Below are positions 24,694 to 51,206 of a stretch of DNA of 64,000 nucleotides, piece after piece. Below the pieces are notes generated by a model that ran no database searches, was not told the DNA's origin, and saw only the letters and a program-made list of their open reading frames with translations. This DNA is from a bacterium (GTDB lineage Bacteria > Cyanobacteriota > Sericytochromatia > S15B-MN24 > UBA4093): positions 260,790-324,789 of the forward strand of contig JAGIBK010000005.1 of assembly GCA_017744355.1 (NCBI GenBank), read 5' to 3'. The first letter of the stretch is position 1. Every line of letters starts with the position of its first letter. Both the position numbers and the translations under genes were made by a program.

Positions 24694-24725
24694 ACTATAA
24701 CGAATCGTCATTAGTAGGTTAAATC

Positions 24726-24749
24726 GAGCGATCTTGCGCAAGATCGCTC
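24726..24749. promoter_or_regulatory. 24-bp perfect palindrome in an AT-rich intergenic island
   Basis: GAGCGATCTTGC GCAAGATCGCTC, between the M23 stop and the DUF4332 start. Confidence 0.35.
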
Positions 24750-24823
24750 CTGCCATGCGCGATAAACCTATTAAGCAAGTATTAAATCCTTGTCATGAGA
24801 CGATGAAAAGTGAGGTTTTCGAC

Positions 24824-25363
24824 ATGATGCAAGTTCGCTTGGCCCTCGTTGCGATGCTGGCTTTCGGTGCGCTGGCTGGCTGCGGGACCCCCACGGGCTC
24901 GCCGCTGGCGGTAGCCGAGGATGTCGATGCGGAAGCGAATCGCGCCTACACGATCATCGACATGCAGGGCATCGGCCCGGTGTACGCCGCCAAGCTCAAG
25001 GAAGCGGGCCTCAACACCACCGCCAAGTACCTCGATGCGACCAAGAGCCGCAAGGATCGTCAGGTGCTCGCCGACAAGACCGGCATCTCCTACAAGCTGA
25101 TCCTGCGCTGGACTCGCAAGGCGGACCTGATGCGGATCTCGGGCATCGGCGTCAAGCAGGCCGATCTGCTCGAAGCCTGCGGCGTGGCCTCGGTCAAGGA
25201 GCTTGCGCGTCGCAACGCCCGGAACCTGGCCGAGCGCGTCTGGGCGGCCAACAACATCTCGCGTCCCTTCGTCAAGGGCGGCACCCCCACCGAGGCGCGC
25301 ATCGCGGCCTGGATCGAGGCCGCCAAGGTCGTCGTCCAGCAGGTGGACGACGAGCAGCCCTAG
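24824..25363 (+). CDS. DUF4332-domain lipoprotein (HhH-type)
   Basis: RBS AAAGTGAGG; lipobox LAGC; tandem helix-hairpin-helix-like GIGPVYAAKL / ISGIGVKQADLL. Confidence 0.7.
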   Translation: MMQVRLALVAMLAFGALAGCGTPTGSPLAVAEDVDAEANRAYTIIDMQGIGPVYAAKLKEAGLNTTAKYLDATKSRKDRQVLADKTGISYKLILRWTRKADLMRISGIGVKQADLLEACGVASVKELARRNARNLAERVWAANNISRPFVKGGTPTEARIAAWIEAAKVVVQQVDDEQP

Positions 25364-25587: not shown

Positions 25588-27327
25588 ATGTCAGAACCCA
25601 AGAGCCGCCACCAGGCGGGACGGATTGCAGGTAGGATGGGCGGGCCGGCGCTGGTGGCCCTCGCCTTGACGCTTTCGCTCACCGGCTGCCCCCAGGCCCT
25701 GACCTCCCTGCCCGGTATCACGGGGGGAGCGCCCACTCCGGCCCCCGAGCAGCAGGCCGGCACCGTCACGGTCAAGGTTCCCCCGTTGCAGGCAGCGGTC
25801 CCCCTCACCCTCGCTGCCCCCGCGCTCCAGCAGGCTGCCGGCCTCCAGCAAGCCGCCGGTCTTCAACAAGCCGCCGGCTACCGGGTCCAGGCCGAAGATT
25901 CTTCCTACAGCGAGGCCCCGGTTCCCAACTCGGTGGTGATCGCCCTGTGCACCACGGGCGGCCAGCAGATCGTCGGCACCACCGACTCCCAGGGCCGGGT
26001 CCTCCTCAAGCTCGACCTCAACAAGGTCTACTACATCACCGCCCCCTTCGTGGACGCCCTTGGGGCTTACCGGGAGTTCCGCACCATCGTCAAGGTCGGC
26101 AAGGACCAGCGAGACAACCCGCCTCCCCAGAGCGTCAACTTCGCTTCGACCGTCGTCACGGCCGCCATCACCGCCAAGAGCGGCGGGGACTTCCGGAACC
26201 TCAAGGCGATCGACGTCAAGGAGGTCCAGAAAGCGGTCGAGGCCACCCAGACGATCATCCGGGCCAAGTCCGACCTGCTGGCTTCCGTCCTGCTGGATAC
26301 CAATGCGGGGAACGCGGCGTCGATCGACATGGCCCTCAAGACCATCGCCATGGCCAAGGAGAGCGATCCGGCCCTCGCCGACGTTCCCAGCCCCATGGCG
26401 GCGGTCGAGGAGGCCCACCGGAGCCACGACGAGACCGTGAGCCTCAAGCCCTCCGGCGAGGAGGAGACGGTCACGGTCGCGGTGGGAGCGGGTCAGGATG
26501 CGACCAAGGCGGCCCAGGAGCAACTGGCGGCGGCCACCCCGGCGCCGACCCCGCGCCCGACGCCGACCCCCGCCCCCACCGCGACCCCCACGCCGCCGCC
26601 GATGCCGACCGTCTCGCGCTTCGAGTTCGAGCCGGGGATCCCCACCCAGATCTTCCTGCCGCTCGTGGTCGACGGGCTGCCCGTCGTGGACCCCGCCTAC
26701 CCCGGGGCCGCCCTCATGAAGACCCGGACCGTCCTGTCCGACGACACGGTGATCGCCGCGGCCAAGTGGTCCATCGCCGCAGGGGACCAGGGAGGCAAGA
26801 TCTCGGTCGGCGCCGGCATCCTGCGGATCGACCCGACGGCGGTCCCCGGCTACGTCAACGTCAAGGCCGAGCCCATCCTGCCCTCGGCGCTCTCGGCGAT
26901 CAAGCCGATCCAGCTCCTGGCCACGCCGGAGCGCGTGGCCGCGGTGCGCACCGCGTTGCCGGACGGGGTTGCGGGCCTCACGGTGCCCGCGGACTTCACC
27001 GTGCCGGGCGACAACAACCTGAGCGGCCTCACCTCCGTCAAGCTCAACACTCGCCTGGTCTGGAACGATCGCCGCGAGTCGACGCTCGCAGGTAGCACGC
27101 CCCACCTGAAGTGGAGCACGACGACCCCGAACCTGGTGTCGATCGACGCGGACGGCACGGTCCGAGCGCTGCCCAACAGCGGCGGCGGCACGGCGGTGGT
27201 CACGGTGACGGCCAACTTCCCCGTCCCGCCGACCAATCGCCTGGTCGCCACCCCCTCTGCGACCGTTCAGATCCCCATCGTGCGCAAGTCCGAGACGCCG
27301 ATCGAGATCGTCTTCCCCTCGTTCTAG
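25588..27327 (+). CDS. lipoprotein A1 of duplicated module: LQQAAG repeats, beta-sandwich, PT-linker, two Big_2-like Ig domains
   Basis: MSEPK start after GGAGAG, conserved with paralog; lipobox LTGC; 3x LQQAAG; GTTDSQGRVLLKLDLNKVYYI; TPAPTPRPTPTPAPTATPTPPP linker; WSTTTPNLVSIDADGTVRAL..TAVVTVTA. Paralog of 32965-34635. Confidence 0.8.
   Translation: MSEPKSRHQAGRIAGRMGGPALVALALTLSLTGCPQALTSLPGITGGAPTPAPEQQAGTVTVKVPPLQAAVPLTLAAPALQQAAGLQQAAGLQQAAGYRVQAEDSSYSEAPVPNSVVIALCTTGGQQIVGTTDSQGRVLLKLDLNKVYYITAPFVDALGAYREFRTIVKVGKDQRDNPPPQSVNFASTVVTAAITAKSGGDFRNLKAIDVKEVQKAVEATQTIIRAKSDLLASVLLDTNAGNAASIDMALKTIAMAKESDPALADVPSPMAAVEEAHRSHDETVSLKPSGEEETVTVAVGAGQDATKAAQEQLAAATPAPTPRPTPTPAPTATPTPPPMPTVSRFEFEPGIPTQIFLPLVVDGLPVVDPAYPGAALMKTRTVLSDDTVIAAAKWSIAAGDQGGKISVGAGILRIDPTAVPGYVNVKAEPILPSALSAIKPIQLLATPERVAAVRTALPDGVAGLTVPADFTVPGDNNLSGLTSVKLNTRLVWNDRRESTLAGSTPHLKWSTTTPNLVSIDADGTVRALPNSGGGTAVVTVTANFPVPPTNRLVATPSATVQIPIVRKSETPIEIVFPSF
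25825..25878 (+). repeat. 3 x 18-nt in-frame repeat encoding LQQAAG
   Basis: CTCCAGCAGGCTGCCGGC / CTCCAGCAAGCCGCCGGT / CTTCAACAAGCCGCCGGC. Confidence 0.9.
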
Positions 27328-27344
27328 TGGCAAGGAGACCGCAG

Positions 27345-29054
27345 GTGAGATTGAAGCAATACCTTCGCTGGGAGCTCTTGCTGGCCCTGAGCCTGGTGGG
27401 ATGCACCGCCGCGATTCCCAACCGCCTCGGAGGCGAGGCCGGGGCCCCCGGCGCCGCCGGCACGCGCTTGGCCGAGCCGGTCGCGCAGGGCGGCAGCCTT
27501 TACTTCCAGATCCGCTGGCCCGGCCCGCGCCTGAGCACGCAGGCCGTCCAGTTCAACCCCGACGCCGTCAAGGTCTTCGTCAAGAAGGCCGATGGCACCG
27601 CGATCCAGTCCCAGGTCCTGACCCGGCCCACCGACGGGACCTTCGTGAGGACCGCGAGGTTCACCCTCGACCCGGCCCTGAAGCAGGTCGACGTCTTCGC
27701 CGAGGCCTGGCAGGCGGATAAGCTGCTGGCCAAGGGCAAGCACCTGGCGGTCCCGGTGCGCGACAACACCTCGACCCCGGTGGCGATCGCCCTGGATCTG
27801 GTCGACCAGAACGGCAACCAGACGGGCCTCGACCTGCGCCTGGCCCCCGAGCTGGCGATGCTCCACAGCCTCCCCGAGCTGGCCGCGCGCTACTCCAACC
27901 TCAGGACGTACGGCACCTCGCCCGAGTTCCTGGAGATCAAGGCCGCCCTCGACGCGACCATCGCCCGATTGTTCGGGGATCGCCGCGACGAGCGCGCCCC
28001 TTCCCCGTCGCCCACCGTGGCCGCTGCCCCGTACCGGGTGCAGAGCCTCGAGAACCCGAGCTTCCGGCTCATCGACGCCCCGTTCCAGGCCGTCGATCTC
28101 GTGGACGGCGTCCCGAGCGTCCTGTACTGGCCCGGCTTCCAGGGGGCTTATTCCTTCAGCGGCGGCAGCACCGGCCTGCACACCCTGGACCTCGCCGTGA
28201 CCCCGGCCGGGCAGGACTTGACCACGGCCAACCTTCACGGGGAGCTGGATGCCGATGCCTGGGTGAGCGAGCCGAACCTGATGCCGATCGCGAAGGGCTA
28301 CGAGCCGGGTGCCACCGAGGTGAGCACGCGCTCGGTCGCCTTGCTCGGCGGCATGCGCCCCGACTTCAAGACCCTGCGGCAAGGCAAGCTGCACTTGGAC
28401 GTGGCTCCCGGCGGGATGGCCGCCCGGGGCGCGGCGCTGGATCTGGCCCTGGACCAGGTCCGCGACGTCTCGAGCACCGCCTTCTACCAGTTCCTCCAAT
28501 CCAAGGTCCAGTCGTCGCTGCCGACCGCCAACTGGCCGTCGCACGCGGCACTCGTCGCCCAAACGCCCACCCTCGCGGCCACGGCCGACATCAAGGCCGC
28601 CGACGACTTCCTGGGCGGCCAGCTGAAGTCGATCTGGCGCCTCTTGGACAAGGATGGCAAGCCGGGCCACTACGACCTGGCTCTTGGCGTCCAGGAGCGC
28701 CTGGGCACGGTGAACGGTAAGCCCGAGATCGCCGGAGCGGACGTGGCCTTCGCCCTGGACGACGTGGCGCTCGGCTTGCGCCTGAAGGGCCTCGCCCACG
28801 TGGAGACCTCTCCGCCGAAGGTGACCATCCAGGCCTCGTTCGTCGACATCGCCTCCAACCTGGTCCTGGGAACCCTCAACTACGAGGTGCCCATCGACTC
28901 CCTGGGCCGCGTGGACTTCAGCCGTCTGGCCTCCTGGCCAGTGCTGACGGTCGCCGACCCGACCAAGCCGGATGCCCCGAAGACGTCCTACCGCCTGACG
29001 CCGGGCTTCTTCTCCGGCGACGTGGACGGCACGATTCAGGTCGAGGTGCGATAG
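27345..29054 (+). CDS. lipoprotein A2 of duplicated module
   Basis: GTG start 8 nt after AGGAG; lipobox LVGC; N-terminal FQIRWPGPRLSTQAVQF domain; C-terminus YRLTPGFFSGDVDGTIQVEVR matches paralog 34651-36468. Confidence 0.75.
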   Translation: MRLKQYLRWELLLALSLVGCTAAIPNRLGGEAGAPGAAGTRLAEPVAQGGSLYFQIRWPGPRLSTQAVQFNPDAVKVFVKKADGTAIQSQVLTRPTDGTFVRTARFTLDPALKQVDVFAEAWQADKLLAKGKHLAVPVRDNTSTPVAIALDLVDQNGNQTGLDLRLAPELAMLHSLPELAARYSNLRTYGTSPEFLEIKAALDATIARLFGDRRDERAPSPSPTVAAAPYRVQSLENPSFRLIDAPFQAVDLVDGVPSVLYWPGFQGAYSFSGGSTGLHTLDLAVTPAGQDLTTANLHGELDADAWVSEPNLMPIAKGYEPGATEVSTRSVALLGGMRPDFKTLRQGKLHLDVAPGGMAARGAALDLALDQVRDVSSTAFYQFLQSKVQSSLPTANWPSHAALVAQTPTLAATADIKAADDFLGGQLKSIWRLLDKDGKPGHYDLALGVQERLGTVNGKPEIAGADVAFALDDVALGLRLKGLAHVETSPPKVTIQASFVDIASNLVLGTLNYEVPIDSLGRVDFSRLASWPVLTVADPTKPDAPKTSYRLTPGFFSGDVDGTIQVEVR

Positions 29055-30557
29055 GTGAGAGCCATGAAGCAAACGCAACTGCATACGCTGGCCATCCTGG
29101 CCCTTTCGGTGGCGATCGCGGGGTGCGCGACGCCTACCCTCCTCGGGGGCCGCGGGGCTCCCAGCCGGGTCGATGCGGCCCAGCCGGCCGCGACGGGCGG
29201 CACCGTGGAGCTCCACCTCCACTGGCCCGACAAGCAGGTCGGGTACGGCGCCCAGGCCATCCCCAACCGGGCGACTCACGCGGTGGTGACCCTGACGGAG
29301 GCTTCGGGCTCGGTCCACACGGCCGAGCTGGCCCGTCCTACCGCCCCGGCGCCAGAGCCCACCCCCAACAAGGACGGGATGACCTCGCAGGGCATGGAGG
29401 GAGGTCCACCCGCCCCCATGGGCGGCGCCTCCTGGCGCCTTGCCCAGCAAGAGGGCGTCACCCTCAAGGCCGAGCTGTTCGACCAGGAAGGCCGTAGCGT
29501 CGGGTCGGCCACCCGGACGGTGGACGTGATCGCGGGCTACCATTCGGTCGTTGCGCTGGACATCCTGGTCGAGGGGGCCCCGAAGCTCGAGGTCGTGAAC
29601 CCGACCGCCTTCAAGATCGGGGATCGGATCGTCCTGGAGGGCCGGAACTTCGGTCTGTCCCACCCCGACTGGTCGCCCGCCGGGGTCTACCTGGAGAGCG
29701 AAGGGACCTACGCCTGGGGCTCGGCCTTCGGGCCCGAGACCCATCAGTACCGGAACATGGTCTACCTGCCGCCTTCCAGCGTGAAGGTCGTCTCGGACTC
29801 GCGAATCGAGGTGACGATCCCGTCCAGCATGGAGAACGGCTGGCACTTCGTGGATGCCCTCTGGAACTACTTCCACGCGAACGGCAACCAGCAGCTCTAC
29901 CTGGGGGTCACGGTGGACGGCGTCAACTCGAACCGGGTGCCGGTCTCCATCCCCCGGGGGACCTCCGCGGGGGTCACCGTGACCGTCGAGCAGGGCCGCG
30001 AGGCCCCGTCGCGCGAGGCGGCGACGGCCTCGGTCGATCTGACGGCGGCCCCGTTCGGGATCCCGGCGGCGAGCGGCTCCAAGTGGGTCTTCGAGGTCGC
30101 CGGGACCGACGGGGACCGCGCCGGCGGCACCCAGACGATGAGCGTCCAGCTGCTGAACGACGACGGAGAAGCCCTCGTCTCGTCCAACGCTCAGGGGGCT
30201 CCGACCAGCGGCTGGCGCACCAACCTGCGCTGGGACTGGCAGTGGGGCTTCATGCGGAGCCTCTCGGCGCCCGCGGCCCTGGGCATTCAGGTTCTCCCCG
30301 ACGAGCAGGTCCCCATGCCGGGCGGCGGCACGGCGATCGCTCGGCACCTCTTCTACACCGCGCAGGGCGGGCCTGACGCCACCTCGGTGCGGGATCTCTG
30401 GGTCGTGCCGGGGGTCGGTCCCGTCCGCATCCGCGAGGTGACCCTCCACGCGAACCAGGATCCCGGAAGCGAGGGCAAGGGGATGGCGCGCCAGACGCGC
30501 GAATACCGTCTGGTCGCCTTCGAGCCGCCCGCCGGCCCCGCGCCGGTGCGTCAATAG
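29055..30557 (+). CDS. lipoprotein A3 of duplicated module (N-domain + IPT-like domain)
   Basis: GTG abuts the upstream stop (TAGGTGA); ATG 29064 is also possible. Lipobox IAGC; HLHWPDKQVGYGAQAIP; VIAGYHSVVALDILV; IPT-like LEVVNPTAFKIGDRIVLEGRNF. Paralog of 36469-37989. Confidence 0.75.
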   Translation: MRAMKQTQLHTLAILALSVAIAGCATPTLLGGRGAPSRVDAAQPAATGGTVELHLHWPDKQVGYGAQAIPNRATHAVVTLTEASGSVHTAELARPTAPAPEPTPNKDGMTSQGMEGGPPAPMGGASWRLAQQEGVTLKAELFDQEGRSVGSATRTVDVIAGYHSVVALDILVEGAPKLEVVNPTAFKIGDRIVLEGRNFGLSHPDWSPAGVYLESEGTYAWGSAFGPETHQYRNMVYLPPSSVKVVSDSRIEVTIPSSMENGWHFVDALWNYFHANGNQQLYLGVTVDGVNSNRVPVSIPRGTSAGVTVTVEQGREAPSREAATASVDLTAAPFGIPAASGSKWVFEVAGTDGDRAGGTQTMSVQLLNDDGEALVSSNAQGAPTSGWRTNLRWDWQWGFMRSLSAPAALGIQVLPDEQVPMPGGGTAIARHLFYTAQGGPDATSVRDLWVVPGVGPVRIREVTLHANQDPGSEGKGMARQTREYRLVAFEPPAGPAPVRQ

Positions 30558-30571
30558 GGAGAGTGAGGCCC

Positions 30572-32116
30572 ATGCTCATGAAGAATCGTTCCCCCTTCGT
30601 CGCAGTGCTCGCGCTTTCCCTGGCGACCGTGAGCGGCTGCGCGGCCTTGCCCGGAAACCTCTTGGCCGCAAGGCCCGAGGCCGCGACGACGGCCCAAGCG
30701 CTGAGCAGCCTGAAGCTGCTCGTCGACTCGGGCGCCTATCGGGCCCAGGCCGTGGACCTGTCGGCGATCGCCATCCACGTGCGGCTGGAGTTCCCGTACC
30801 AGTCCGACGCCTCCCCCCGGACCCTCGACGTTCAGAGCGGGGTGCCCGCGGTGTTCGGGGATCTGGCCCCGGGGCATGCCCTGCTCACCGTGTCGGCCCA
30901 GAACGTGGTGACAAACCAGCTCATCGACACCCAGTCGCGCTGGGTGGACCTGCTGCCCGGCGTCCAGGCGGCGGCCCAGTTCGCCTTGACCGTCGGCGGC
31001 TCCACGGCGGCCGACGTCGGGGTCACCTTCGGCGCGAACACCCGGGATTACCGGACGTTCGACCAGCCCGACGGCCTCGACCCCGACTTCAGGGCGGCAC
31101 TCGGCAACGGCCAGTTCATGCCCGGGCGCCGGGTGCTGCCGTTCCAGCTGGAGACGCCCGAGGGCACGAGCTACTTGACCTTCACCACGGACGCGGACCA
31201 CCTGGAGCGCCAGATCGCTCACCAGCCGTCGGTGAGCTACCCTTCCAACGCCTGGTATCAGCTGCCCGGGCATGCCGTGCGGGTCGACTCCGAGCCCCTC
31301 CTGGGGCAGACGAAGGTTCGCCACTTCCGCTGGTCGAACGAGTACGAGGCGAACGACGAGCGTCGCCTCTACACCTTCGATCGGTGGGTGACCCCCTTGG
31401 AAGGGACGATCAAGGAGACCGTCAGCGAGAACGGTGTCGTCCGCTCGACCCTGAGCCGGACCCCTGTCCGGCTCGCCGGGATGCTTCTCAGGGGATCGGA
31501 TCCCCTGACCATGCCCTTCCCGCTCGGCCTCAAGCGCTGGGACGGTGAGGCCTTCGTGCCGGCTGAGGCAGGCACGGCGCGGGACGAGAAGGGGAACACC
31601 CTCTTCTTCGGGGTCACGCCAGGCCGCTATCAGGTCGTCTATGACGCGTCGACGGGGTTCATGGATCCCTCGCTCGCGGCGCGCGTCGTCTCGGCGCCCG
31701 TCCAGGTAAGCGACATGGGCCAGGCGTCGTTCGGCCTCGACGTGGGCTGGGAGCTCAGGCCCTCGATCGGTCCAACTGCGAAGCGCGAGTTCGTGCCCGG
31801 CTTCGACGCCTTCGCCTTCGCTCCGAAGAGCGGCGCGCCCGACGCCGAATACCAGGTGGTGGTCGCGTCGGCTTCCTACACGGAAGGTCGGCCAACTTAC
31901 CAGCCGGTCTGGAGCTCCGCCTGGGGGCCTGCCGGCAGCGTGGCCTGGAACGGGAAGGCGGGTGAGGAGGTCAGCGATCCGGTCGGTGTCGACGCGCCGA
32001 CGGGCGACTACGCCTATCACGTGAGGTTCCGCAAACAGGGGACCGCCTTCGGGGGCGAGGGTTCCTACGGCCAGAGCCACTGGCAGTCCTTCCGCCTCAT
32101 GCGCGCGCCGCTTTAA
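30572..32116 (+). CDS. lipoprotein A4 of duplicated module
   Basis: RBS GGGAGAG; lipobox VSGC; FDRWVTPLEGTIKE block shared with paralog 38008-38955; carries about 190 extra C-terminal residues. Confidence 0.7.
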   Translation: MLMKNRSPFVAVLALSLATVSGCAALPGNLLAARPEAATTAQALSSLKLLVDSGAYRAQAVDLSAIAIHVRLEFPYQSDASPRTLDVQSGVPAVFGDLAPGHALLTVSAQNVVTNQLIDTQSRWVDLLPGVQAAAQFALTVGGSTAADVGVTFGANTRDYRTFDQPDGLDPDFRAALGNGQFMPGRRVLPFQLETPEGTSYLTFTTDADHLERQIAHQPSVSYPSNAWYQLPGHAVRVDSEPLLGQTKVRHFRWSNEYEANDERRLYTFDRWVTPLEGTIKETVSENGVVRSTLSRTPVRLAGMLLRGSDPLTMPFPLGLKRWDGEAFVPAEAGTARDEKGNTLFFGVTPGRYQVVYDASTGFMDPSLAARVVSAPVQVSDMGQASFGLDVGWELRPSIGPTAKREFVPGFDAFAFAPKSGAPDAEYQVVVASASYTEGRPTYQPVWSSAWGPAGSVAWNGKAGEEVSDPVGVDAPTGDYAYHVRFRKQGTAFGGEGSYGQSHWQSFRLMRAPL

Positions 32117-32127
32117 AGGAGAAGCCC

Positions 32128-32775
32128 ATGAAACCTTCGAAGCTCTTCGTCTTTGCAGGGGCGCTCTTGCTTGCGATCGCGGGCTGCGCCTCGCTTCCCC
32201 CGACTTCCCAGGCTCCGCTCGGGCCGAGCAACTCAAGTGAAGCCCCGGCGCTGACCCTCAAGCTCGACCTGGGACGTCGGGTCCAGGCGGTGGCGCGCGA
32301 CGTGGCAGGAGCGCGGGTCAGCCTCTCGGTCGCAGGCCGGGTGTTCGAGACCCAGGCCACCCTGTCGGTCGTTCCGCTCGCTTCCCCTTCGCCCGGTGGC
32401 CCTACGCCATCGCCGAGCCAGGCCCCGCTCGAAAACGTGATCGAGCTGTCGAAGGCGACGGGGATGGCGCTGGTCGCAGGGGATGCCAGGGTCCACGTCG
32501 AGGCCATCGACCAGGAGGGGCGGGTGATCGGGAGCGGCGACGCGGTGGCGCCGCTCCTGATCGGGCGCCGTAGCTACGTCCAGGTCCTGGTGAAGCTGGA
32601 CAGCACCGGCCGGACGGAATATATGCCCTTCACGCCCCTGGGACCGCAGCCGAGCCCATCGCCTGAGCCCACCTGGTTCCCTTCGGCCGAGCCGCTCCCG
32701 TCCCCGACCGGGAGCCCTTCGTTCGAGCCGACGCCGGAGCCTACCAGGAGCCCCTCGCCCGAGCCGACGCCATAA
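32128..32775 (+). CDS. lipoprotein A5 of duplicated module with a Pro/Ser/Thr/Glu-rich tail
   Basis: RBS AAGGAG; lipobox IAGC; LTLKLDLGRRVQAV N-domain; C-terminal PSPSPEPTWFPSAEPLPSPTGSPSFEPTPEPT. Paralog of 38958-39518. Confidence 0.75.
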   Translation: MKPSKLFVFAGALLLAIAGCASLPPTSQAPLGPSNSSEAPALTLKLDLGRRVQAVARDVAGARVSLSVAGRVFETQATLSVVPLASPSPGGPTPSPSQAPLENVIELSKATGMALVAGDARVHVEAIDQEGRVIGSGDAVAPLLIGRRSYVQVLVKLDSTGRTEYMPFTPLGPQPSPSPEPTWFPSAEPLPSPTGSPSFEPTPEPTRSPSPEPTP

Positions 32776-32806
32776 AACCACCCCCCTGGGCGTGATGTCC
32801 ACGGCC

Positions 32807-32846
32807 GCAAAGACGCCCCCCAAGCGGGGGGCGTCTTTGCTTTGGG
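32807..32846 (+). terminator. rho-independent terminator separating the two module copies
   Basis: GCAAAGACGCCCCCC aag CGGGGGGCGTCTTTGC followed by TTTGGG. Confidence 0.8.
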
Positions 32847-32964
32847 ATAGAGTGACGGCGGGGCGTTCTTGTAATAAAAGCGACATAACCCGGGTAATTT
32901 CATGATGGCCCTTGCTTGTTTCGATCACATCGATTGAGCGGTGTCCATGCCGTGGAGAGCCTAC

Positions 32965-34635
32965 ATGTCCGAACCGAAGAACCTGCCCCCCACACGCACA
33001 AGCGCCCGTCGGGCCGTTGTGCTCGGCGCGCTGAGCTTGTCGCTTGCCGGCTGTCCTATGGGGGCGGGCTGGGACGATAAGCCCGGCATCACGCAGACTC
33101 CGCCGCCGACGGGCAACAACCTCGTGACCGTGGCGCCCCTCGCGACGGTTGCGCCCATCCGCGTGACCGCGCCCTCGTTGCAGCAGGCGGCGGGCCTCCA
33201 GCAGGCCGCAGGGCTGCAACAGGCAGCAGGCTTGCAGCAGGCCGCGGGATTGCAACAGGCGGCAGGGCTTCAGCAGGCCGTGGGATACCGGACCCAGGCC
33301 GGCTACGGCATCCAGGCCGACGAGAACTTTTACGCCGAGGTGCCGGTGGCAGGCGCCGAGGTCATCGCCTATCCCGCGGCAGGCGGCGATCCGGTTATCG
33401 GGAGTACGGACGAGCAGGGCTTCGTCCGCCTCAAGCTGGACGTCAACAAGGTCTACACCATCGTCGCCAAGTTCAAGGACGCCACGGGTCAGGACAAGCA
33501 GTTCAAGGCCATCACCAAGGTCGAAAAGGACCAGGTGGACAAGCCCGAGGAGCAGAAGTCCCAGCTCAAGCTGGACCTGGCCTCGACCCTGGTCGCCGAG
33601 ACGGTGGCCAAGGCTCAGGGCGACAACCTCAAGACCGTCGACGTCGCCAAGGTCGCCGAGGCGGTCGCGGCGACCAAGACCGTGCTGGCGGCCAGGCCCG
33701 AGGCCCTCGTCTCGGTCCTGCTCAACACCGACACCACCAAGTTCGAGCAGGTGCAGCAGGCGCTCAAGCAGATCTCGTTCGTCCAGCAGACGACCGATGC
33801 GCTCAAGGGCCTGCGCGACGCGGCCGATGCGCTCTCTGCGGCGCAGACCAGCTTCGACCCCACGGTCAACACCCGCAAGGGCGGCGAGCAAGAGCCCGCG
33901 GCGCCCACGGCGACCCCCACCCCGACGCCGCCCTCGAGCTTCAACCAGGTCCCGGTCAAGGCCCCGACGGCCGTCAAGGTCTTCGAGCCGGCACCGAACT
34001 TCCCGACCAAGGTCTACATCCCCTTCAAGGTCGCAGGCGAAGACGTCAGCGACCCCATCGCCTTCCCGACCGCGCTGCTGCTCAAGGCGAACGCCAAGCT
34101 CACGGACGACACCGCCTTCGAGCCGACCTGGTCGCTCGTCCAAGAGAAGGCGGGCGTCAGGATCGTGGGCAGCCTGCTCGTCGTCTCCTCGGGCGCGAGG
34201 CCCGGCGAGATCACCCTGAAGGCGACGCACGGCGACCGTACCTTCCAGGTCGGCCCCATCAGCGTTCTGAGCACCCCCGTGCGGGTCAAGAAGATCTCGC
34301 TCACGGTGCCGCAACCGCTGAAGCTGGTCGTGCCGCCCGAAGGGCCCCTGCCCCCGGGCGCGACGCTCATCGGCGCCTCGACCGCATCACTTGGCCTCAG
34401 CCTCGAGATGAACAACAAGACGACCTCTACCGACTTCGGCTTGGTGGCTTGGTACGCCTCGCCTTCCGCCCACGTGCGGGTCGATGCGGCCAATCGCCAG
34501 CTGCGCGTCTTGTCGGGCGCGCCGGTCGGTCTGTACGAGATCTTCGGGCTCGCCTCCACGGACAGCGCCACGGTGTCGACCAAGGTTCAGATCGATGTCG
34601 AGCGCAAGAGCCAGATCGGCGCCGAGATTCAGTAG
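32965..34635 (+). CDS. lipoprotein B1 of duplicated module: 6x LQQA(A/V)G repeats, Big_2-like domains
   Basis: MSEPK start after GGAGAG; lipobox LAGC; repeat array; WSLVQEKAGVRIVGSLLVVS and WYASPSAHVRVDAANRQLRVL Ig-like blocks. Confidence 0.8.
   Translation: MSEPKNLPPTRTSARRAVVLGALSLSLAGCPMGAGWDDKPGITQTPPPTGNNLVTVAPLATVAPIRVTAPSLQQAAGLQQAAGLQQAAGLQQAAGLQQAAGLQQAVGYRTQAGYGIQADENFYAEVPVAGAEVIAYPAAGGDPVIGSTDEQGFVRLKLDVNKVYTIVAKFKDATGQDKQFKAITKVEKDQVDKPEEQKSQLKLDLASTLVAETVAKAQGDNLKTVDVAKVAEAVAATKTVLAARPEALVSVLLNTDTTKFEQVQQALKQISFVQQTTDALKGLRDAADALSAAQTSFDPTVNTRKGGEQEPAAPTATPTPTPPSSFNQVPVKAPTAVKVFEPAPNFPTKVYIPFKVAGEDVSDPIAFPTALLLKANAKLTDDTAFEPTWSLVQEKAGVRIVGSLLVVSSGARPGEITLKATHGDRTFQVGPISVLSTPVRVKKISLTVPQPLKLVVPPEGPLPPGATLIGASTASLGLSLEMNNKTTSTDFGLVAWYASPSAHVRVDAANRQLRVLSGAPVGLYEIFGLASTDSATVSTKVQIDVERKSQIGAEIQ
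33178..33285 (+). repeat. 6 x 18-nt in-frame repeat encoding LQQAAG (last unit LQQAVG)
   Basis: TTGCAGCAGGCGGCGGGC, CTCCAGCAGGCCGCAGGG, CTGCAACAGGCAGCAGGC, TTGCAGCAGGCCGCGGGA, TTGCAACAGGCGGCAGGG, CTTCAGCAGGCCGTGGGA. Confidence 0.9.
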
Positions 34636-34650
34636 CGGAGGAAAGAAGAC

Positions 34651-36468
34651 GTGAGAACGAAGCGAATCCTTCGCTGGGAGATCCTGCTCGCCCTGGGCCT
34701 GGTCGGTTGTACGGCGGTCGCGCCGAGCCGCATCGGGCCTCCATCCACTTCGACAGCCCAAGGGCCCGAAGCGTCGGCGATCGCGCCCGCCCACCACACA
34801 AGCAGCCTGATCCTTCGCATCCGCTGGCCCGAGCGGCAGGGTCTCGCGACCCAGGCCATCCCGAACGCCACCGAGAAGATCGTGGTGACCATCCTGGGCC
34901 CGAACGGCGCCAAGGTCCACGAGAAGACGGCACAGCGCCCGGCTGCCGGTCAGTTGAACACCCCCACCACCCTCACCTTCGATCTGGATCCGGCGCTCGG
35001 CTCGGTCACGCTCGAGGCGGTCGCCTACGGCCCGGGCAACACGCGCCTGGCCGAAGGCCGCCAGGCGAATATCCGCCTGCTGGACAACGTGGCGCTCGGG
35101 GTGTCGATCACGCTGACGGACACCGGCGCGCTCCAGGTCGTGTACGCGAACCAGCTGGCGCTGGTCAAGAACCTGGAAGGCTACATGGAGCGCTTCCACG
35201 ACTTCGCCAACTACGAGCGGACGTCGGAAGGCGAGGCCATCAAGGGCGCCTTCGATCGCGTGTTGGGCCGGAGGACCCTCGGCGATCTGCTGCGGCCGTA
35301 TTCCCCCCCGCCCGAGGATGAGGGTGGCTTCCCGATGCCGTCCGAGGGGGTGCCCCCCGCAGGCCCGGAAAGGCTCTGGGAGGTCGGCGTGGAGCCCGAG
35401 TTCGAAGGCTCCTGGGGGGTCGATCTCCTGGGTCGATCGCTCCTGGCGCTCTACTGGCAGGGCTATACCAGCCCGGATGCCTGGGCGAACTTCAAGGGGG
35501 ACTGGCAGCTGAGCAGGCCCGACCCTCAGCGCTGGCAGCTTGACGTGAACGGGGCGCCCGATTCCTTCGGTGGGCAGTATTCCGACCAGAGCACCTTCGC
35601 CTTGCGCGCCAGGATGGACGCCGGCCAGTGGACGGATACGCCTTGGGGCACGCGCTTCCTTCGCGGTAGCAATGATGGCCCCTTCGTCACGCGGATCATC
35701 GATCTGTTCGGGCCGAAGACACCCGTCTTCGGGACCATGGGCGCCTTCAGCCTCGACTTCGACCTGACACCCAATGGGGATGCGGCCCGCGCTTATTCCT
35801 ACCGCTTCGAGGCGGATTCTTTCAGGAGCAGCGCCTCGGTCCCGGTTGCCCTCAACACGGAGCTCGGCGGTCCGGTGGATCTGCTGTGGGACTTGCTGCG
35901 CGACCCCATCTTCTCGCGCCTGACCGACCTCAGCACCCACCTGCCTGCGCTGCCGGGGCGGGTCTCGATCGTCAGCCACTACCCGTCACTGCAGTCGACC
36001 ATGTCGATGGCGGTTCGCTCGGCATCCACGATCGACCTCAACGTGGCGGCGCGCCTGAAGGACAATGCCGGTGCACGGGTGACCTTCCCCGTCGCCATGA
36101 GCTTTTCGCCGACCTACGCCTTCGAGCAAGGCAAGCGCAAGCTCGCCACCAACAAGGTGCACTTCGAGGTCGCGGATTCCCAGCAGCAGCTGAAGCTGGT
36201 GGGTGATTTCGAGCAAGGGCCGACCGTCATGACCCTGCACGCCCAGATCGTGGACACCTCGGGACGCCAGACGAACACGCTATTGGCGACCCTCGACCAC
36301 ACCTGGAACAAGCACCCGAATGGTGGCTTCGACTTCAGCCGCATCGCGGATTTCCCGCTCCTCGTGGTGAACGACGATCCCGATGAGTCGAAACGGACGC
36401 GCTATCGCTTGACGCCCGGCTTCTTCAACGGCGACAAGCTGGGCCACGTGAGCGTGGAGGTACGGTAG
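34651..36468 (+). CDS. lipoprotein B2 of duplicated module
   Basis: GTG start after GGAGGAAAG; lipobox LVGC; LILRIRWPERQGLATQAIP; C-terminus RYRLTPGFFNGDKLGHVSVEVR. Confidence 0.75.
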   Translation: MRTKRILRWEILLALGLVGCTAVAPSRIGPPSTSTAQGPEASAIAPAHHTSSLILRIRWPERQGLATQAIPNATEKIVVTILGPNGAKVHEKTAQRPAAGQLNTPTTLTFDLDPALGSVTLEAVAYGPGNTRLAEGRQANIRLLDNVALGVSITLTDTGALQVVYANQLALVKNLEGYMERFHDFANYERTSEGEAIKGAFDRVLGRRTLGDLLRPYSPPPEDEGGFPMPSEGVPPAGPERLWEVGVEPEFEGSWGVDLLGRSLLALYWQGYTSPDAWANFKGDWQLSRPDPQRWQLDVNGAPDSFGGQYSDQSTFALRARMDAGQWTDTPWGTRFLRGSNDGPFVTRIIDLFGPKTPVFGTMGAFSLDFDLTPNGDAARAYSYRFEADSFRSSASVPVALNTELGGPVDLLWDLLRDPIFSRLTDLSTHLPALPGRVSIVSHYPSLQSTMSMAVRSASTIDLNVAARLKDNAGARVTFPVAMSFSPTYAFEQGKRKLATNKVHFEVADSQQQLKLVGDFEQGPTVMTLHAQIVDTSGRQTNTLLATLDHTWNKHPNGGFDFSRIADFPLLVVNDDPDESKRTRYRLTPGFFNGDKLGHVSVEVR

Positions 36469-37989
36469 GTGATCAAGATGAGTACGCGCTCCTGGGCTTC
36501 GGCGATCGCGATCGCCACCACCCTCGCGATCGCCGCCTGCGCGATGCCGCCTTCCCTGAACGGCGGCGCGGGCAACCGGTCTGCGGCCGAGCAGGCCATC
36601 AAGCATGAGATGGGGAAGCTTGCGATCAGCGTCGCCTGGCCCCGCAAGACCCAGGCGATCCCCTTCCGCGCCACCAAGATGGTCATTCGCCTGACCAAGG
36701 CGGGCAGCGCCGCCTCGCCCGAGCACGAGCTGCCGGTCATGGATGCGAGCGATGCCGCCTTCCCGGACGTCGTCATCGACCGGGGCGATAACCCGCTGAC
36801 CAGCTACGGGCCGACGACTTACGAGTGGGACATCCCACAGCAGGCGGATGTCCGCCTGTCGGCGATCCTCTACGAAGATGACGCGGTGATCGGCTCCGAT
36901 GCGCGCGTTATCGACGTGATCGCCGGCGTGCACTCCCACGTGGGGCTCAACATCGTGCTCAACGCGGCGAACGCATCCCACCTGACGAGCATCTCCAGCG
37001 ACTCGCTCGGGGTCGGCGACGTGATCACCCTGACGGGCTCGAACTTCGCGAAGGACCGGGAAGCCTGGAGCAAGCAGGTCTTTTTCCAGATCGAGAGCGA
37101 CTGGCGGATGGGCGGTTCTCCCCATCCGTCGCCCAGCGGCGGCCCCATGGTCGAGGTTGAGCGCGTTTACTTCCCTGCCAATCGGGTCGAGGTGGTGAGC
37201 GACTCCGAGATCCGGGTGACCATCCCCGCCACCTTCCCTTACTATCCGGGGCAATCCTCGGAGTCGGGCATTCCGCTGCTCTCGAGGCTCTGGAGCTACT
37301 TCCGGGATCCCAGCGCGGCCCGTCTCTTCATCGGGGTCGATGTGGACGGCGCCGCCACCGAGCTGAAGCCCGTCACGTTCAAGCCGGGCGCGCTGGCCGC
37401 AGACGTGACACTCACCGCGGACGCGGTGGCCCCCGCCAAGGCGAGCGGGCGCAATGGCCCCCTCTGGGTGGATGACCACTACATGGATCCCGCCGTGGAG
37501 TCGGGAAGCTACTGGACCTATCGCGTGCAGGGGCCTTCGTACTGGCAGCAGCGAGAGGTGACGGTTCGCATCTCGAACCCTGGCGGATCCTGGGAGGGCG
37601 GCGCGGAGATCCTTGAGGGCCCCCAGGTGGCGCAGGTCGCGGATCTGGCCAATCACCCGGAGTTCGACTTCATGTGCTTCCTGAACCCGCAGACCCGGGT
37701 TTATCAGCAGGGCTTCGGCCCTGACAACGACACGGTCACCTACACCTACACGGTGCCTCACTTCACGCGCGGCGGTCAGAAGTACCCGAGACCCGGCGCG
37801 ATTCGCGAGGTCACGATCCGGCGCAACGTCGGCGTCGTGTACATGCGCGAAACCTACCTCGCACGGTTCGGGGATCGGATCGAACGGGAAGTGAGGGAAT
37901 ACGGGCTGATGAACTCGCCCGTGGCGCCCTCGGCAGGGACCGTCTGGCCCACCCCGTGGCCCTCGATGACGCCCGTCCCCGGGGTCTAG
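36469..37989 (+). CDS. lipoprotein B3 of duplicated module
   Basis: GTG abuts the upstream stop (TAGGTGA); signal peptide with atypical IAACA lipobox; ISVAWPRKTQAIP; VIAGVHSHVGLNIVL; IPT-like LTSISSDSLGVGDVITLTGSNF. Confidence 0.7.
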   Translation: MIKMSTRSWASAIAIATTLAIAACAMPPSLNGGAGNRSAAEQAIKHEMGKLAISVAWPRKTQAIPFRATKMVIRLTKAGSAASPEHELPVMDASDAAFPDVVIDRGDNPLTSYGPTTYEWDIPQQADVRLSAILYEDDAVIGSDARVIDVIAGVHSHVGLNIVLNAANASHLTSISSDSLGVGDVITLTGSNFAKDREAWSKQVFFQIESDWRMGGSPHPSPSGGPMVEVERVYFPANRVEVVSDSEIRVTIPATFPYYPGQSSESGIPLLSRLWSYFRDPSAARLFIGVDVDGAATELKPVTFKPGALAADVTLTADAVAPAKASGRNGPLWVDDHYMDPAVESGSYWTYRVQGPSYWQQREVTVRISNPGGSWEGGAEILEGPQVAQVADLANHPEFDFMCFLNPQTRVYQQGFGPDNDTVTYTYTVPHFTRGGQKYPRPGAIREVTIRRNVGVVYMRETYLARFGDRIEREVREYGLMNSPVAPSAGTVWPTPWPSMTPVPGV

Positions 37990-38007
37990 TCGCGAGGGGA
38001 GGAACGA

Positions 38008-38955
38008 ATGATGATGAGGTCCAAGATGCGCCTGCGCCACCTGCTACTCGCCGCCCTCTCGGTTTCCTTGGTCGGATGCCAGGGGCTTTCCGGTGTGCTC
38101 TCCCCGAGCACTGGCGGCGGCATGAGTGCGGTGCAGGCACAGACCGGCGGCCTGACGGTCCGACTCGGCAACGCGGCGCTCGCCTACAAGGCGCAGCAAC
38201 TGACGGACTTCCCGTTGGAAGAGGTGGAGGTCCTGGTGACGGTGGAGAGCCCGGACGCGCAGGATCCCGCCGTGCGTCGCCAAGAACGAACGGTCAGGCT
38301 CGGCCAGGTGATCGAGTTCGCCCAGGTTCCTGCCGGGTACGTGGACGTGACGGCCATCGCCTTATACAAGGGGCAGGTCTTCGACCGGCAATACACCAGT
38401 GCGGCGATCATGCCCGGTGGCTCGGAGACCGTCACGCTCGAACTGAATGTGGGCGCGAGCGCGCTGGATCTCGACTTCGGGTCCGCGCTGCCCGTTCGCC
38501 GTATGGACGTTCGCGACCTGCCGGAGTTCGCGGCCTACCAGCTGCCTTCGGGCGCCGAGAGCATCGACTTCGATCTGGTGGATGCCAGCGGAGCGACCGA
38601 ATCGATTTCGTTCCGCCATGCCGACGGCTGGCTCTATCGCAAGCTCGGCCTTGAGCCCTGGCCCGAGGCGAGTGAGTGGTGGCGCTTCTCGTTCGGCTGG
38701 GGCGCCCTCACGACCCTGCCCGCGCATGCGACCATCGTCGGGGCGGAGGCGCCCTGGAACGGCTGGGCCGGAACGGTGAAGCGCTTCCAGTGGGAGAACG
38801 TCTACGTCACCAATCGCAACGGGAGCACGCAGGACGTCACCTATCGCTTCGACCGCTGGTACTCGCCCACCGAGGGCCTGCTGCGCGAGGACGTCCACGA
38901 GGCGAGCGGCTCGCAGCCTATCCTGGTGACCCGCATGATCCGGAAGGGGCTTTGA
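38008..38955 (+). CDS. lipoprotein B4 of duplicated module (short form)
   Basis: RBS GGGGAGG; lipobox LVGC; FDRWYSPTEGLLRE block. Confidence 0.7.
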   Translation: MMMRSKMRLRHLLLAALSVSLVGCQGLSGVLSPSTGGGMSAVQAQTGGLTVRLGNAALAYKAQQLTDFPLEEVEVLVTVESPDAQDPAVRRQERTVRLGQVIEFAQVPAGYVDVTAIALYKGQVFDRQYTSAAIMPGGSETVTLELNVGASALDLDFGSALPVRRMDVRDLPEFAAYQLPSGAESIDFDLVDASGATESISFRHADGWLYRKLGLEPWPEASEWWRFSFGWGALTTLPAHATIVGAEAPWNGWAGTVKRFQWENVYVTNRNGSTQDVTYRFDRWYSPTEGLLREDVHEASGSQPILVTRMIRKGL

Positions 38956-38957
38956 GC

Positions 38958-39518
38958 ATGAGCGTCACGAACAAGACTTTCGCCCTCCTGGGCGCCTGCG
39001 GCGCCGTGGCCGCGCTCTTGATAGCGGGGTGCGCGTCGTTCCCCGCGGCGGGGGCCGGTACCCCCGCGGGCCAGATCGCCGAGGCCCCGAAGGCCTCGCT
39101 CTCGCTGCGCGTGCGTCTGCCGAGGACGGTCCAGGTGGTGAGGAGCGAGATCACCGGCGCGACGATCAGCGTCACGATCGACGGCGAGGCGCCGATCCAG
39201 GTGCCTGTCGCCCTGTCATCCAGCGACGGCAACGTACGCCTGCCTGTGCCGGATAGGGACCTGGGGGAAGCCGAGGCGTTCTCGCTCGAGGATCTACCCC
39301 AGGGGGATGCGGTCGTGAGGCTGGACCTCTACCGAGGAACCGAGATCGTCGGCACCGGGGAGGCCCTGGTGCCGCTCATCCGGGGATACCGCTCGGCCGC
39401 TTTCATTCAGATTTACCTGGACAGCCGCGGCAAGACCGATATGAAGCCCCTGGCACCCTTGCCGGGCGCCACCGTCAGGCCCGAGAACCCGCCGTCGGAT
39501 CTCTACCCGCCTGCTTAG
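38958..39518 (+). CDS. lipoprotein B5 of duplicated module
   Basis: Lipobox IAGC; LSLRVRLPRTVQVV N-domain; LIRGYRSAAFIQIYLDSRGKTD block. Confidence 0.7.
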   Translation: MSVTNKTFALLGACGAVAALLIAGCASFPAAGAGTPAGQIAEAPKASLSLRVRLPRTVQVVRSEITGATISVTIDGEAPIQVPVALSSSDGNVRLPVPDRDLGEAEAFSLEDLPQGDAVVRLDLYRGTEIVGTGEALVPLIRGYRSAAFIQIYLDSRGKTDMKPLAPLPGATVRPENPPSDLYPPA

Positions 39519-39557: not shown

Positions 39558-41045
39558 TCATGCGACCCACTCGTTGCGATCGCCGTCCGAGGCGTTGCGC
39601 TTGGGTTTGGTCCCGCGCAGGACGGCGTGGATGTCGGGCTCGTAGAGCACTTCGTGGTCCAAGAGCCCCTGAGCGAGTCGCTCCAGGTCCTCGCGCCGCT
39701 CGATGAGCACCTCGCGGGCTTGCTCGTAGGCCTCGCGCAAGACCTGCTCGACGGCCAGATCCAGCCGCTCGCGGGTGGCCTCGGAGCAGGTCAGCTCCTT
39801 GTAGTTGATGGGGGATCCCCCGAGCATCCCCAGCTCCCAGACCAGGAGCTCGGCGATCTTGGTGGCGCGCTTGAGGTCCGAGTGGGCGCCGCTCGTCACC
39901 TCACCGAAGACCATCTCTTCGGCGACGCGGCCGCCCATGAGGACGGCGAGCTCCGAGCAGTACTCTTCGCGGGTGATCAGGTGCCGGTCCTCGCGCTCCA
40001 CCGACCAGGTGTAGCCCAGGGCGTGGCGGCCGGTGGGGATGATTGAGGCCTTGTGCAGGCGCTTGTGCGGCTGGGTGCGCAGGCTGACCACCGCATGGCC
40101 CGCCTCGTGGTAAGCGACCACCCGGCGCTCGTGAGGATTGAGCGGGTGCGAGGCGTTCTCGAGCCCGATCCCCAGGCGCTCCATGGCCTTCGAGAAGTCC
40201 TCGTGGCGTACCTGCGAGCGTCGCTCGCGCACCGCGAGGATCGAGGCCTCGTTGACCACCGAAGCCAGATCCGCCCCGCTCATGTTGGTGGCGGCCCGCG
40301 CCAGCGCCCGCAAATCCACGCTGCGGTCGAGCTGCACCTTGCGGGAGTAGTGGGCCAGGAGCGCCTCGCGCCCCTTGAGGTCGGGCAGTCCCACGTGGAT
40401 CTTGCGGTCGAAGCGTCCGGGCCTGAGAAGGGCCGTATCGAGCGACTCCTCGTAGTTGGTCGCCCCGATGGTGATCACGTTGCTGTCGCGGCCGAAACCG
40501 TCCAGCTCGACCAGGAACTGGTTGAGGGTGTTGTTGCCCTCTTGGCCGCCGAACTGGTTGCTGCTGCGCGAGCGCCCCAACGCGTCGATCTCGTCGATGA
40601 ACACGATGGCCGCAGGGTGCTTGCGGGCCTTCTTGTAGAGGGAGCGGATCCGGCTTGCGCCCACCCCCACGAAGACCTCGACGAAGTCCGCACCCGAAAG
40701 AGAGTAGAATGGGACTCCGGCCTCGTTGGCGATGGCCTTGGCCAGAAGGGTCTTGCCGGTACCGGGCGGCCCGACCAGGAGGATCCCCTTGGGAATCTTG
40801 GCGCCGATCCGCTCGAAGGTCTGGGCGTTCTTGAGGAAGTCGACGACCTCCTGGGCCTCGCGCTTGGCTTCGTCGATGCCGAGCACGTCCTTGAAGCGCA
40901 CGTCATTGTTGGTCTCGCGGCTTGGGTCGAATTTGGCGCGGTTGAACATCCCCCCCATCACCCGCGCGTACACCAGGCAGAAGACCACGGCGTAGAGCAC
41001 GATCATGACGAAGGTGAGGGCGAGTTGGATGAGGATTTCGAGCAT
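39558..41045 (-). CDS. FtsH-family AAA+ zinc metalloprotease, minimal N-terminus (single TM, no periplasmic domain)
   Basis: Walker A GPPGTGKT, Walker B IVFIDEID, SRH, zinc site HEAGHA; start ATG 41045 after GGAGGTG; only one N-terminal hydrophobic helix precedes the AAA module. Confidence 0.85.
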   Translation of the reverse strand: MLEILIQLALTFVMIVLYAVVFCLVYARVMGGMFNRAKFDPSRETNNDVRFKDVLGIDEAKREAQEVVDFLKNAQTFERIGAKIPKGILLVGPPGTGKTLLAKAIANEAGVPFYSLSGADFVEVFVGVGASRIRSLYKKARKHPAAIVFIDEIDALGRSRSSNQFGGQEGNNTLNQFLVELDGFGRDSNVITIGATNYEESLDTALLRPGRFDRKIHVGLPDLKGREALLAHYSRKVQLDRSVDLRALARAATNMSGADLASVVNEASILAVRERRSQVRHEDFSKAMERLGIGLENASHPLNPHERRVVAYHEAGHAVVSLRTQPHKRLHKASIIPTGRHALGYTWSVEREDRHLITREEYCSELAVLMGGRVAEEMVFGEVTSGAHSDLKRATKIAELLVWELGMLGGSPINYKELTCSEATRERLDLAVEQVLREAYEQAREVLIERREDLERLAQGLLDHEVLYEPDIHAVLRGTKPKRNASDGDRNEWVA

Positions 41046-41223
41046 GCGGCACCTCCTCGACTGGGGCCCCGGGATCGTAGCATTCAAGGAAGCGTTAGCC
41101 GTTCTCCCGGGGCGCCAAAAACCCTCCCCAGATCTGACCATCGAGGAAGGAGGGGATCCGGCGAGAATCGGGTATAGAGGGAAGAACCCACCGTCGGGTC
41201 CTTGCCGCGAGGGGGCGGCCACC

Positions 41224-51186: not shown

Positions 51187-51206
51187 GGACCATGAAGGGA
51201 ACGATC

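Follow-up and report, generated by a model that had tools for sequence, protein, structure and literature searches.

DUF1735 occurs only in Bacteroidota, where 89% of its copies lie at the N-terminus of multimodular lipoproteins, and a role as a membrane-bound spacer has been proposed for it (PMC11216935). The present analysis concerns an N-terminal module of about 105 amino acids (aa), here termed the N-domain, which recurs in lipoproteins encoded on a 64,000-nucleotide stretch of contig JAGIBK010000005.1 (assembly GCA_017744355.1) from a member of the Sericytochromatia; this whole stretch is referred to as the window. Profile searches and alignments of the copies in the window and of their relatives showed that these blocks make up a real domain family that had not been catalogued before; its sequence is new, its kind familiar. 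To our knowledge, almost nothing is known about the cell envelope of the Sericytochromatia, which do not photosynthesize and are sisters of the oxygenic cyanobacteria. A search of the literature on Sericytochromatia lipoproteins found nothing relevant.

The N-domain copies and their relatives

Ten same-strand genes between 25.5 and 39.5 kb encode products that all carry a signal peptide and a lipobox cysteine. The genes form two paralogous five-gene lipoprotein cassettes in tandem, A1-A5 (25588-32775) and B1-B5 (32965-39518), in which neighbors abut or are separated by at most about 20 bp (e.g., 29054/29055, 36468/36469 and 30557/30563), and the paired A and B proteins are 28-34% identical over their full length. 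Four of the five proteins of each cassette (types 2-5) open with the common N-domain, which is absent from type 1, and another copy is found in the unlinked lipoprotein C, bringing the set to seven canonical copies (A2, A3, A5, B2, B3, B5 and C) and two diverged ones (A4 and B4, whose membership is discussed below). Their positions (nt, nucleotides) are as follows:

A2: 27345-29054, + strand; type 2 lipoprotein of 569 aa; lipobox LVGC with Cys20; N-domain at aa 51-154 (nt 27495-27806).
A3: 29055-30557, + strand; type 3 lipoprotein of 500 aa; lipobox IAGC with Cys24; N-domain at aa 49-174 (nt 29199-29576).
A4: 30563-32116, + strand; type 4 lipoprotein of 517 aa; lipobox VSGC with Cys26; probable, diverged N-domain at aa 49-146 (nt 30707-31000).
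A5: 32128-32775, + strand; type 5 lipoprotein of 215 aa; lipobox IAGC with Cys20; N-domain at aa 41-159 (nt 32248-32604).
B2: 34651-36468, + strand; type 2 lipoprotein of 605 aa; lipobox LVGC with Cys20; N-domain at aa 52-157 (nt 34804-35121).
B3: 36469-37989, + strand; type 3 lipoprotein of 506 aa; lipobox IAAC with Cys24; N-domain at aa 49-166 (nt 36613-36966).
B4: 38008-38955, + strand; type 4 lipoprotein of 315 aa; lipobox LVGC with Cys24; probable, diverged N-domain at aa 48-150 (nt 38149-38457).
B5: 38958-39518, + strand; type 5 lipoprotein of 186 aa; lipobox IAGC with Cys25; N-domain at aa 47-156 (nt 39096-39425).
C: 51782-52744, + strand; C-type lipoprotein of 320 aa; lipobox LVAC with Cys18; N-domain at aa 39-143 (nt 51896-52210).

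All nine copies share one layout, in which the lipobox Cys is followed by a short low-complexity tether and then by the domain as the first folded module. The A3 gene starts with GTG, and its N-domain harbors a Pro-rich loop insert and is followed by a weak IPT/TIG-like region. Only a Pro-rich tail follows the domain in A5 (identical to NCBI protein J7643_14305), and B5 (J7643_14330) is essentially a domain-only protein. The family hidden Markov model (HMM) detected the N-domain in no other open reading frame (ORF) of the window, including the lipoproteins C0, the DUF4332 protein and a PLD-like protein.

The original prediction had proposed that seven lipoproteins open with a similar block, and this is borne out: the peptides it quoted were all found in the genes it named, and the block aligns across A2, A3, A5, B2, B3, B5 and C. 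Its label for the block, 'WP..QAIP', fits only five of the seven (A2, A3, B2, B3 and C), because A5 (LDLGRRVQAV) and B5 (VRLPRTVQVV) lack the Trp-Pro. There is no WP in A4 either, where the equivalent segment is SGAYRAQAV.

Chance similarity was ruled out by motif shuffles and by leave-one-family-out HMMs. The regular expression WP.{1,9}Q[AV][IV][PQ] produced five matches in the 373 six-frame ORFs of the window, all of them in A2, A3, B2, B3 and C, and a mean of 0.04 matches (maximum 1) on residue shuffles. HMMs built from the window copies minus the tested paralogue pair recovered, over the full domain length, A2 (E 1e-4) and B2 (E 9e-7), A3 (E 9e-9) and B3 (E 2.5e-7), and C (E 5e-10). Likewise, an HMM of 54 members without type-5 sequences recovered B5 (E 3e-5) and A5 (E 2e-4), and the A5/B5-type sequences aligned to the rest of the family in hhalign over 96 columns (97.6%, E 4.5e-12). 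With the iterated family HMM, the values fall to E 2e-28 for A2, 4e-28 for A3, 5e-28 for B2 and 8e-24 for B3.

For the degenerate version of the block that had been proposed in A4 and B4, the scores of the single proteins against the family HMM are marginal (E 4e-3 across HMM positions 2-102 for A4 and E 1.2e-2 for B4), but the five type-4 N-regions align end to end with the family profile in hhalign (86.7%, E 4.3e-6, 95 columns). The type-4 orthologue in the Sericytochromatia genome LC003 is matched by the family HMM at E 1e-6. Judged by these sequence comparisons, A4 and B4 are probably family members, at a level short of the usual certainty.

When 1.84 billion representative proteins were searched exhaustively with the HMMER profile, 64 matched at E<=1e-3; about 60 of these are true relatives, and four were discarded as evident false positives (non-N-terminal, multi-stretch and low-scoring). 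Word-index homologue searches with alignments of 7 and 60 sequences gave three and five matches, the index probably being swamped by Pro-rich inserts. In nearly all true relatives the domain lies at about aa 40-160, and in 61 of 64 family sequences only a short disordered tether separates it from the lipobox, as expected from the proposal that it is the membrane-proximal first domain of a lipoprotein family; the remaining three are N-terminally truncated. From Cys to domain the tether measures 9-59 aa (median 25); Ala (20%), Pro (15%) and Gly (11%) are abundant in it, as are Ser and Thr. The family is thus very rare and locked to the N-terminus of lipoproteins.

The family consensus reads G-s-L-x-l-x-i-R-W-P-x-R-(0-6)-t-Q-A-I-P ... 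l-x-R-P and continues after the R-P with V-x-A-e-A-y ... i-A-x-G ... V-x-v ... n-x-x-t-x-V-x-l-x-L. Within the signature, Gln is conserved at 94%, Trp at 88%, the two prolines at 86% (WP) and 83% (IP), Ile at 77% and Arg at 75%, and, of the 52 motif-bearing members, 46 have a basic residue after strand 1. When only the domain is compared, identity clusters mirror the protein types (type 3, n=12, 480-592 aa; type 2, n=11; C-type, n=11; type 5, n=10; and others), indicating that the paralogues are old orthologous groups and not the product of recent shuffling. Two further features of the type-2 proteins (27345-29054 and 34651-36468) were observed, namely an unusually conserved signal peptide, M-R-x-K-x-x-L-R-W-E-L-L-L-A-L-x-L-V-G-C, in which R8 and W9 are invariant in nine sequences, and a common C-terminal motif, YRLTPGFFxGDxxGxVxVEVR.

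Predicted fold and relation to known families

AlphaFold2, supplied with the 60-sequence alignment, predicted for the B2 domain an all-beta structure with a predicted local distance difference test score (pLDDT) of 90 and a predicted template modeling score (pTM) of 0.83, composed of seven strands (residues 2-8, 27-33, 39-46, 57-63, 69-77, 83-93 and 99-108). A single-sequence model of C reached a pLDDT of 43 only. The predicted fold is a beta-sandwich of the transthyretin/FN3/Ig-like class, in line with the shared beta-sandwich module of the original prediction, and it displays the transthyretin-like seven-strand sandwich by which CarboxypepD_reg and PEGA would be recognized. In the B2 model strands 1 and 2 are joined by a long connection made up of the WP...QAIP segment, with W10, P11, R13, Q19, A20, I21 and P22 in the numbering of the B2 domain, the R-P (R47 and P48) follows strand 3, and the best-conserved residues sit between strands, outside the core strands. 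A Foldseek comparison with experimental structures gave no match to the domain model at E<=1e-3. Modeling therefore depicts a common sandwich without a specific structural relative, with type V pilins among its top structural neighbors.

Sequence searches failed to connect the domain with any named family, as had been suspected for Pfam. Pfam and NCBIfam found nothing in the N-domain of the ten cassette proteins at E<=1, and none of 60 isolated N-domains from across the family reached a Pfam gathering score (best E 0.013). Matches below threshold were to FlgD_ig (four of the 60; best E 0.019), CarboxypepD_reg (one; E 0.029) and Big_1 (two; E 0.062); PEGA and DUF1735 were not among the 25 families listed of the 35 matched at E<=1, and no TIG or Big_2 domain was found inside the 60 N-domains. 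The best hit of a PDB sequence-profile search, at E 0.086, was to an S-layer Ig-like domain. Neither of the two outcomes that had been named beforehand as contradicting the prediction, a clean assignment to a known family and the lack of a common fold, emerged from the Pfam, NCBIfam and PDB searches and the AlphaFold2 model.

It is very unlikely that the N-domain belongs to an existing family (CarboxypepD_reg, PEGA, FlgD_ig, Big or DUF1735) from which it has diverged too far for single-sequence HMM scans to pick it up. The scattered sub-threshold matches to FlgD_ig and CarboxypepD_reg are what such a relationship might produce, and the neighboring proteins A1, B1 and Cbig have first domains that weakly resemble CarboxypepD_reg (E 2e-4 to 0.03). 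However, no family was matched in more than four of the 60 members, none at gathering score, the PDB profile search offered nothing better than the S-layer domain, and hhalign of the N-domain family against the Cbig-type CarboxypepD_reg-like domains returned a probability of 2% over 29 columns. The same hhalign result led us to reject the first domains of A1, B1 and Cbig as members of the N-domain family. These neighbors are located as follows:

A1: 25588-27327, + strand; first gene of cassette A, encoding a lipoprotein in which the HMM found no N-domain.
B1: 32965-34635, + strand; first gene of cassette B, a paralogue of A1 (34% identity), likewise without the N-domain.
Cbig-C0-C: 47722-52744; three-lipoprotein operon with C as its last gene.

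Cbig comprises 1154 aa, with three IPT/TIG domains and an NHL propeller, and C0 comprises 195 aa. In A1, LQQAAG repeats, the weakly CarboxypepD_reg-like sandwich, a helical region, a Pro-rich linker and Ig-like C-terminal domains can be distinguished. The LQQAAG hexapeptide arrays, close to the N-termini of A1 and B1, are encoded by 18-bp tandem repeats at 25825-25878 (A1, three copies) and 33178-33286 (B1, about six copies), and their copy number varies among the orthologues in loci L002 and L005. Before the second strand of their first domain, A1 (~25875-25900), B1 (~33290-33330) and Cbig (~47900-47930) each bear a short R-x-x-Q-A motif (YRVQA, YRTQA and RRVQAT) that resembles the ...R..QAIP loop seen in the N-domain family (e.g., FPGGLATQATP vs WPERQGLATQAIP). 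The paralogues on contig L008 likewise open with a weakly CarboxypepD_reg-like sandwich and the R-x-x-Q-A motif.

Conserved lipoprotein operons and the role of the N-domain

The five-gene lipoprotein operon is conserved beyond the window. A search for related loci with a five-sequence type-3 alignment led to one species, 'Candidatus Sericytochromatia bacterium LC003' (JAKFBU010000004.1), which has a single cassette encoding proteins of 564, 627, 480, 311 and 377 aa. This cassette is orthologous to cassette A, its genes 2-5 encode the N-domain, and its flanks match those of the window (SDF symporter, a hypothetical gene, lytic transglycosylase (SLT), M23 peptidase and DUF4332 lipoprotein). A second genome, GCA_036704125.1 (DATNQI010000087.1; locus L005), is fully syntenic and holds cassette A together with a reduced cassette B, from which B3 is missing and in which B2 is cut to little more than the N-domain. 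The order 1-2-3-4-5 is kept in the three genomes, with the SLT and M23 genes directly upstream of the cassette. GCA_036704125.1 is a third-party annotation (TPA) metagenome-assembled genome (MAG) labeled 'Pantanalinema sp.', a name that belongs to a filamentous cyanobacterium; the label looks wrong because of the 69% G+C content and the gene-for-gene synteny with both the window and the Sericytochromatia MAG.

Relatives are also found on two other contigs. The more distant contig L007 (61% G+C) encodes five consecutive N-domain lipoproteins at 9175-15716 with the variant motif WPxxTR[VTL]IP (WPAGTRVIP, WPDTRVIP, WPNRAIP, WPEDTRTIP and WPETTRLIP), in which the near-invariant Gln is absent. The best named matches of its YidC are all to Armatimonadota, and on this sequence evidence L007 is a probable Armatimonadota contig. 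Contig L008 keeps the Cbig-C0-C operon (4050-10863) and has an extra gene in which the N-domain is joined to a region matching the IPT/TIG repeats of Cbig and to a MauG-type di-haem peroxidase.

The C-terminal partners of the domain are diverse. In 58 full-length members, Pfam identified IPT/TIG in nine, Big_2 in four and an NHL propeller in two, as well as single cases of a CCP_MauG di-haem cytochrome c peroxidase, a cupredoxin, DUF7305 and others. A PDB sequence-profile search with full-length alignments found no recognizable domain in the C-terminal regions of types 2 and 3 beyond weak IPT/TIG in type 3, and the type-5 proteins consist of the N-domain with a Pro-rich tail or an unannotated extension.

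The invariant N-terminal position behind a flexible tether, the generic sandwich, the promiscuous partners and the narrow lineage make a generic membrane-proximal pedestal or spacer the most likely role of the N-domain, a reading that we hold at about even chances; that it acts as a spacer, and in which compartment of the envelope the proteins sit, is inferred. These properties agree with those of DUF1735 and of the N-terminal Ig domains of SusE/F in Bacteroidota, for which such a role has been proposed. As the first folded module, the N-domain would hang from the lipidated Cys by its 9-59-aa tether and would hold a variable C-terminal module (IPT/TIG, Big_2, NHL, MauG peroxidase, cupredoxin or others) at a set distance from the membrane. 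The family has diversified through gene duplication, giving five or more orthologous types (2, 3, 4, 5 and C) that are grouped in conserved lipoprotein operons.

Several observations weigh against a merely passive spacer. Type-5 proteins that are close to domain-only (A5, B5 and their orthologues) are kept as the last cassette gene in three genomes, which a passive spacer does not account for, and the peak of conservation in the inter-strand segments hints at a binding surface. Together with the fixed gene order and tight packing, the loop conservation (Gln, 94%) and the domain-only proteins favor a docking or assembly function. Such a module, a tentative and rather unlikely but serious alternative, would use the WP-x-R...Q-A-I-P and R-P segments as a common interface by which co-operonic lipoproteins bind each other or a shared envelope partner (peptidoglycan or an outer-membrane protein), with each five-gene cassette yielding one multi-lipoprotein complex. 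Consistent with docking, conservation is highest outside the core strands, domain-only proteins are retained, the truncated B2 of GCA_036704125.1 retains precisely its N-domain, and close packing in a fixed order is typical of stoichiometric complexes; the SLT and M23 genes upstream point in the same direction. Conversely, the conserved Trp and prolines could merely shape the long A-B loop and cap the sandwich, and the Armatimonadota-like variants dispense with the near-invariant Gln (WPxxTRVIP). The cell-wall gene synteny carries little weight because the three syntenic genomes are close relatives, and it is absent in L007.

The strictly conserved position straight after the tether, in lipoproteins with otherwise unrelated cargo, could also be explained by a sorting tag, that is, a domain or loop by which a pathway specific to the lineage would recognize lipoproteins and deliver them to the outer membrane or cell surface, functionally like the Bacteroidota lipoprotein export signal or Slam substrates. 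A1, B1 and Cbig, whose first domains are not homologous to the N-domain, bear R-x-x-Q-A at the equivalent place, which would fit such a tag. We nevertheless regard this explanation as improbable: known lipoprotein sorting signals are short peptides beside the Cys and not a 105-residue folded domain 25 residues away, other window lipoproteins (24734-25363, 62649-63998 and C0) have neither the domain nor the motif, and no candidate machinery was found within the window.

The structural neighborhood of type V pilins raises the question of a polymer in which the first strand is cleaved after the basic residue of WP-x-R, opening a groove for strand exchange between subunits, the mechanism of the FimA/Mfa pili of Bacteroidia. 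Five co-operonic lipoprotein-precursor genes are also found in fim/mfa operons (PMC8512630), and the basic residue of the window proteins lies at precursor positions ~50-62, near Arg46/Arg49 of FimA/Mfa1. A polymer of this type is nonetheless extremely unlikely here, given that the 60 N-domains share no sequence similarity with pilin families in Pfam, that TIG, Big_2, propellers or enzymes follow the N-domain in place of a pilin C-terminal domain, that no conserved C-terminal donor-strand motif is common to the types, and that no type V pilins are known outside Bacteroidia. A link to secretion or pilus machinery within the window was likewise rejected, as none is encoded there.

A bolder proposal, which we put forward with very little confidence, is that the N-domain, far from being a passive stalk, provides the interface shared by the subunits of a new surface assembly of several lipoproteins, specific to the non-photosynthetic Cyanobacteriota (Sericytochromatia) and to Armatimonadota. 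It draws on the pilins among the top structural neighbors, the five-gene operons, the loop conservation and the domain-only members, and its extreme form, in which strand 1 is clipped after the basic residue of WP-x-R and subunits join by strand exchange, would, if true, represent the first type V-pilus-like system outside Bacteroidia.

Some further features of the window (65-70% G+C), in each region of which codon-position bias singles out one clear gene, lie outside the lipoprotein operons. The lytic transglycosylase (SLT), M23 peptidase and DUF4332/HhH lipoprotein genes occupy 23324-25363, directly upstream of cassette A, and an L,D-transpeptidase and an M15 peptidase are encoded at 4207-6185. 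Large ORFs with good codon bias and weak or no Pfam match are present at 8066-10666 (866 aa) and 41005-42903 (632 aa; kept beside FtsH in L005), and 52882-57029 encodes a pair of 591 and 791 aa, of which only the 791-aa protein has a weak AAA_22 match.

Comparison with known systems

Clustered at 50% identity, the N-domain family amounts to about 60 clusters in a set of 15 billion proteins, and it could become a new Pfam/InterPro entry, which would annotate otherwise unannotated envelope proteins of Sericytochromatia and related uncultured lineages. The duplicated five-lipoprotein operon with its common N-terminal module offers a concrete handle on the Sericytochromatia envelope; otherwise, the domain would be one more beta-sandwich spacer, unless its conserved loop mediates assembly or sorting.

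Small lipoproteins made of one sandwich are known among the secretin pilotins, for example ExsB (PDB 2yjl) and AspS (5wec), to which the domain-only A5 and B5 may be compared. The identity is 11%, however, 2yjl is absent from the PDB profile matches at E<=10, no secretin or type II or type III secretion system (T2SS/T3SS) genes are found within the window, and most members of the N-domain family, unlike pilotins, have large C-terminal modules. CarboxypepD_reg (PF13620) and other transthyretin-like domains, which are common in envelope proteins, including the neighbors A1, B1 and Cbig, share with the N-domain the seven-strand sandwich and, toward the C-terminal end, a comparable arrangement of strands. 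The long conserved first loop of the N-domain is not present in classical members, and all 60 N-domains stay below threshold for the family.

Type V pilins (Mfa2/FimB anchors, Mfa3 and DUF1812; PDB 5nfi, 3gf8, 5nf4 and 3r4r) resemble the cassette proteins in being lipoprotein precursors with a transthyretin-like first domain encoded in five-gene operons. They differ in sequence, to which the N-domain bears no similarity, and in their pilin C-terminal domain and donor strand, which the cassette proteins lack.

Lastly, DUF1735 (PF08522), the N-terminal Ig-like domains of SusE/SusF and BACON are, like the N-domain, phylum-restricted beta-sandwiches placed right after the lipoprotein signal. No SusC/D or carbohydrate-active enzyme (CAZyme) genes are found near the cassettes, and there is no link to polysaccharide utilization loci. 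They share with the family described here the many clustered paralogues per genome and the diverse C-terminal modules. They belong to Bacteroidota, whereas the N-domain, which shows no sequence relationship to DUF1735 among the Pfam families listed and has its own WP...QAIP signature, is found in Sericytochromatia and probable Armatimonadota.

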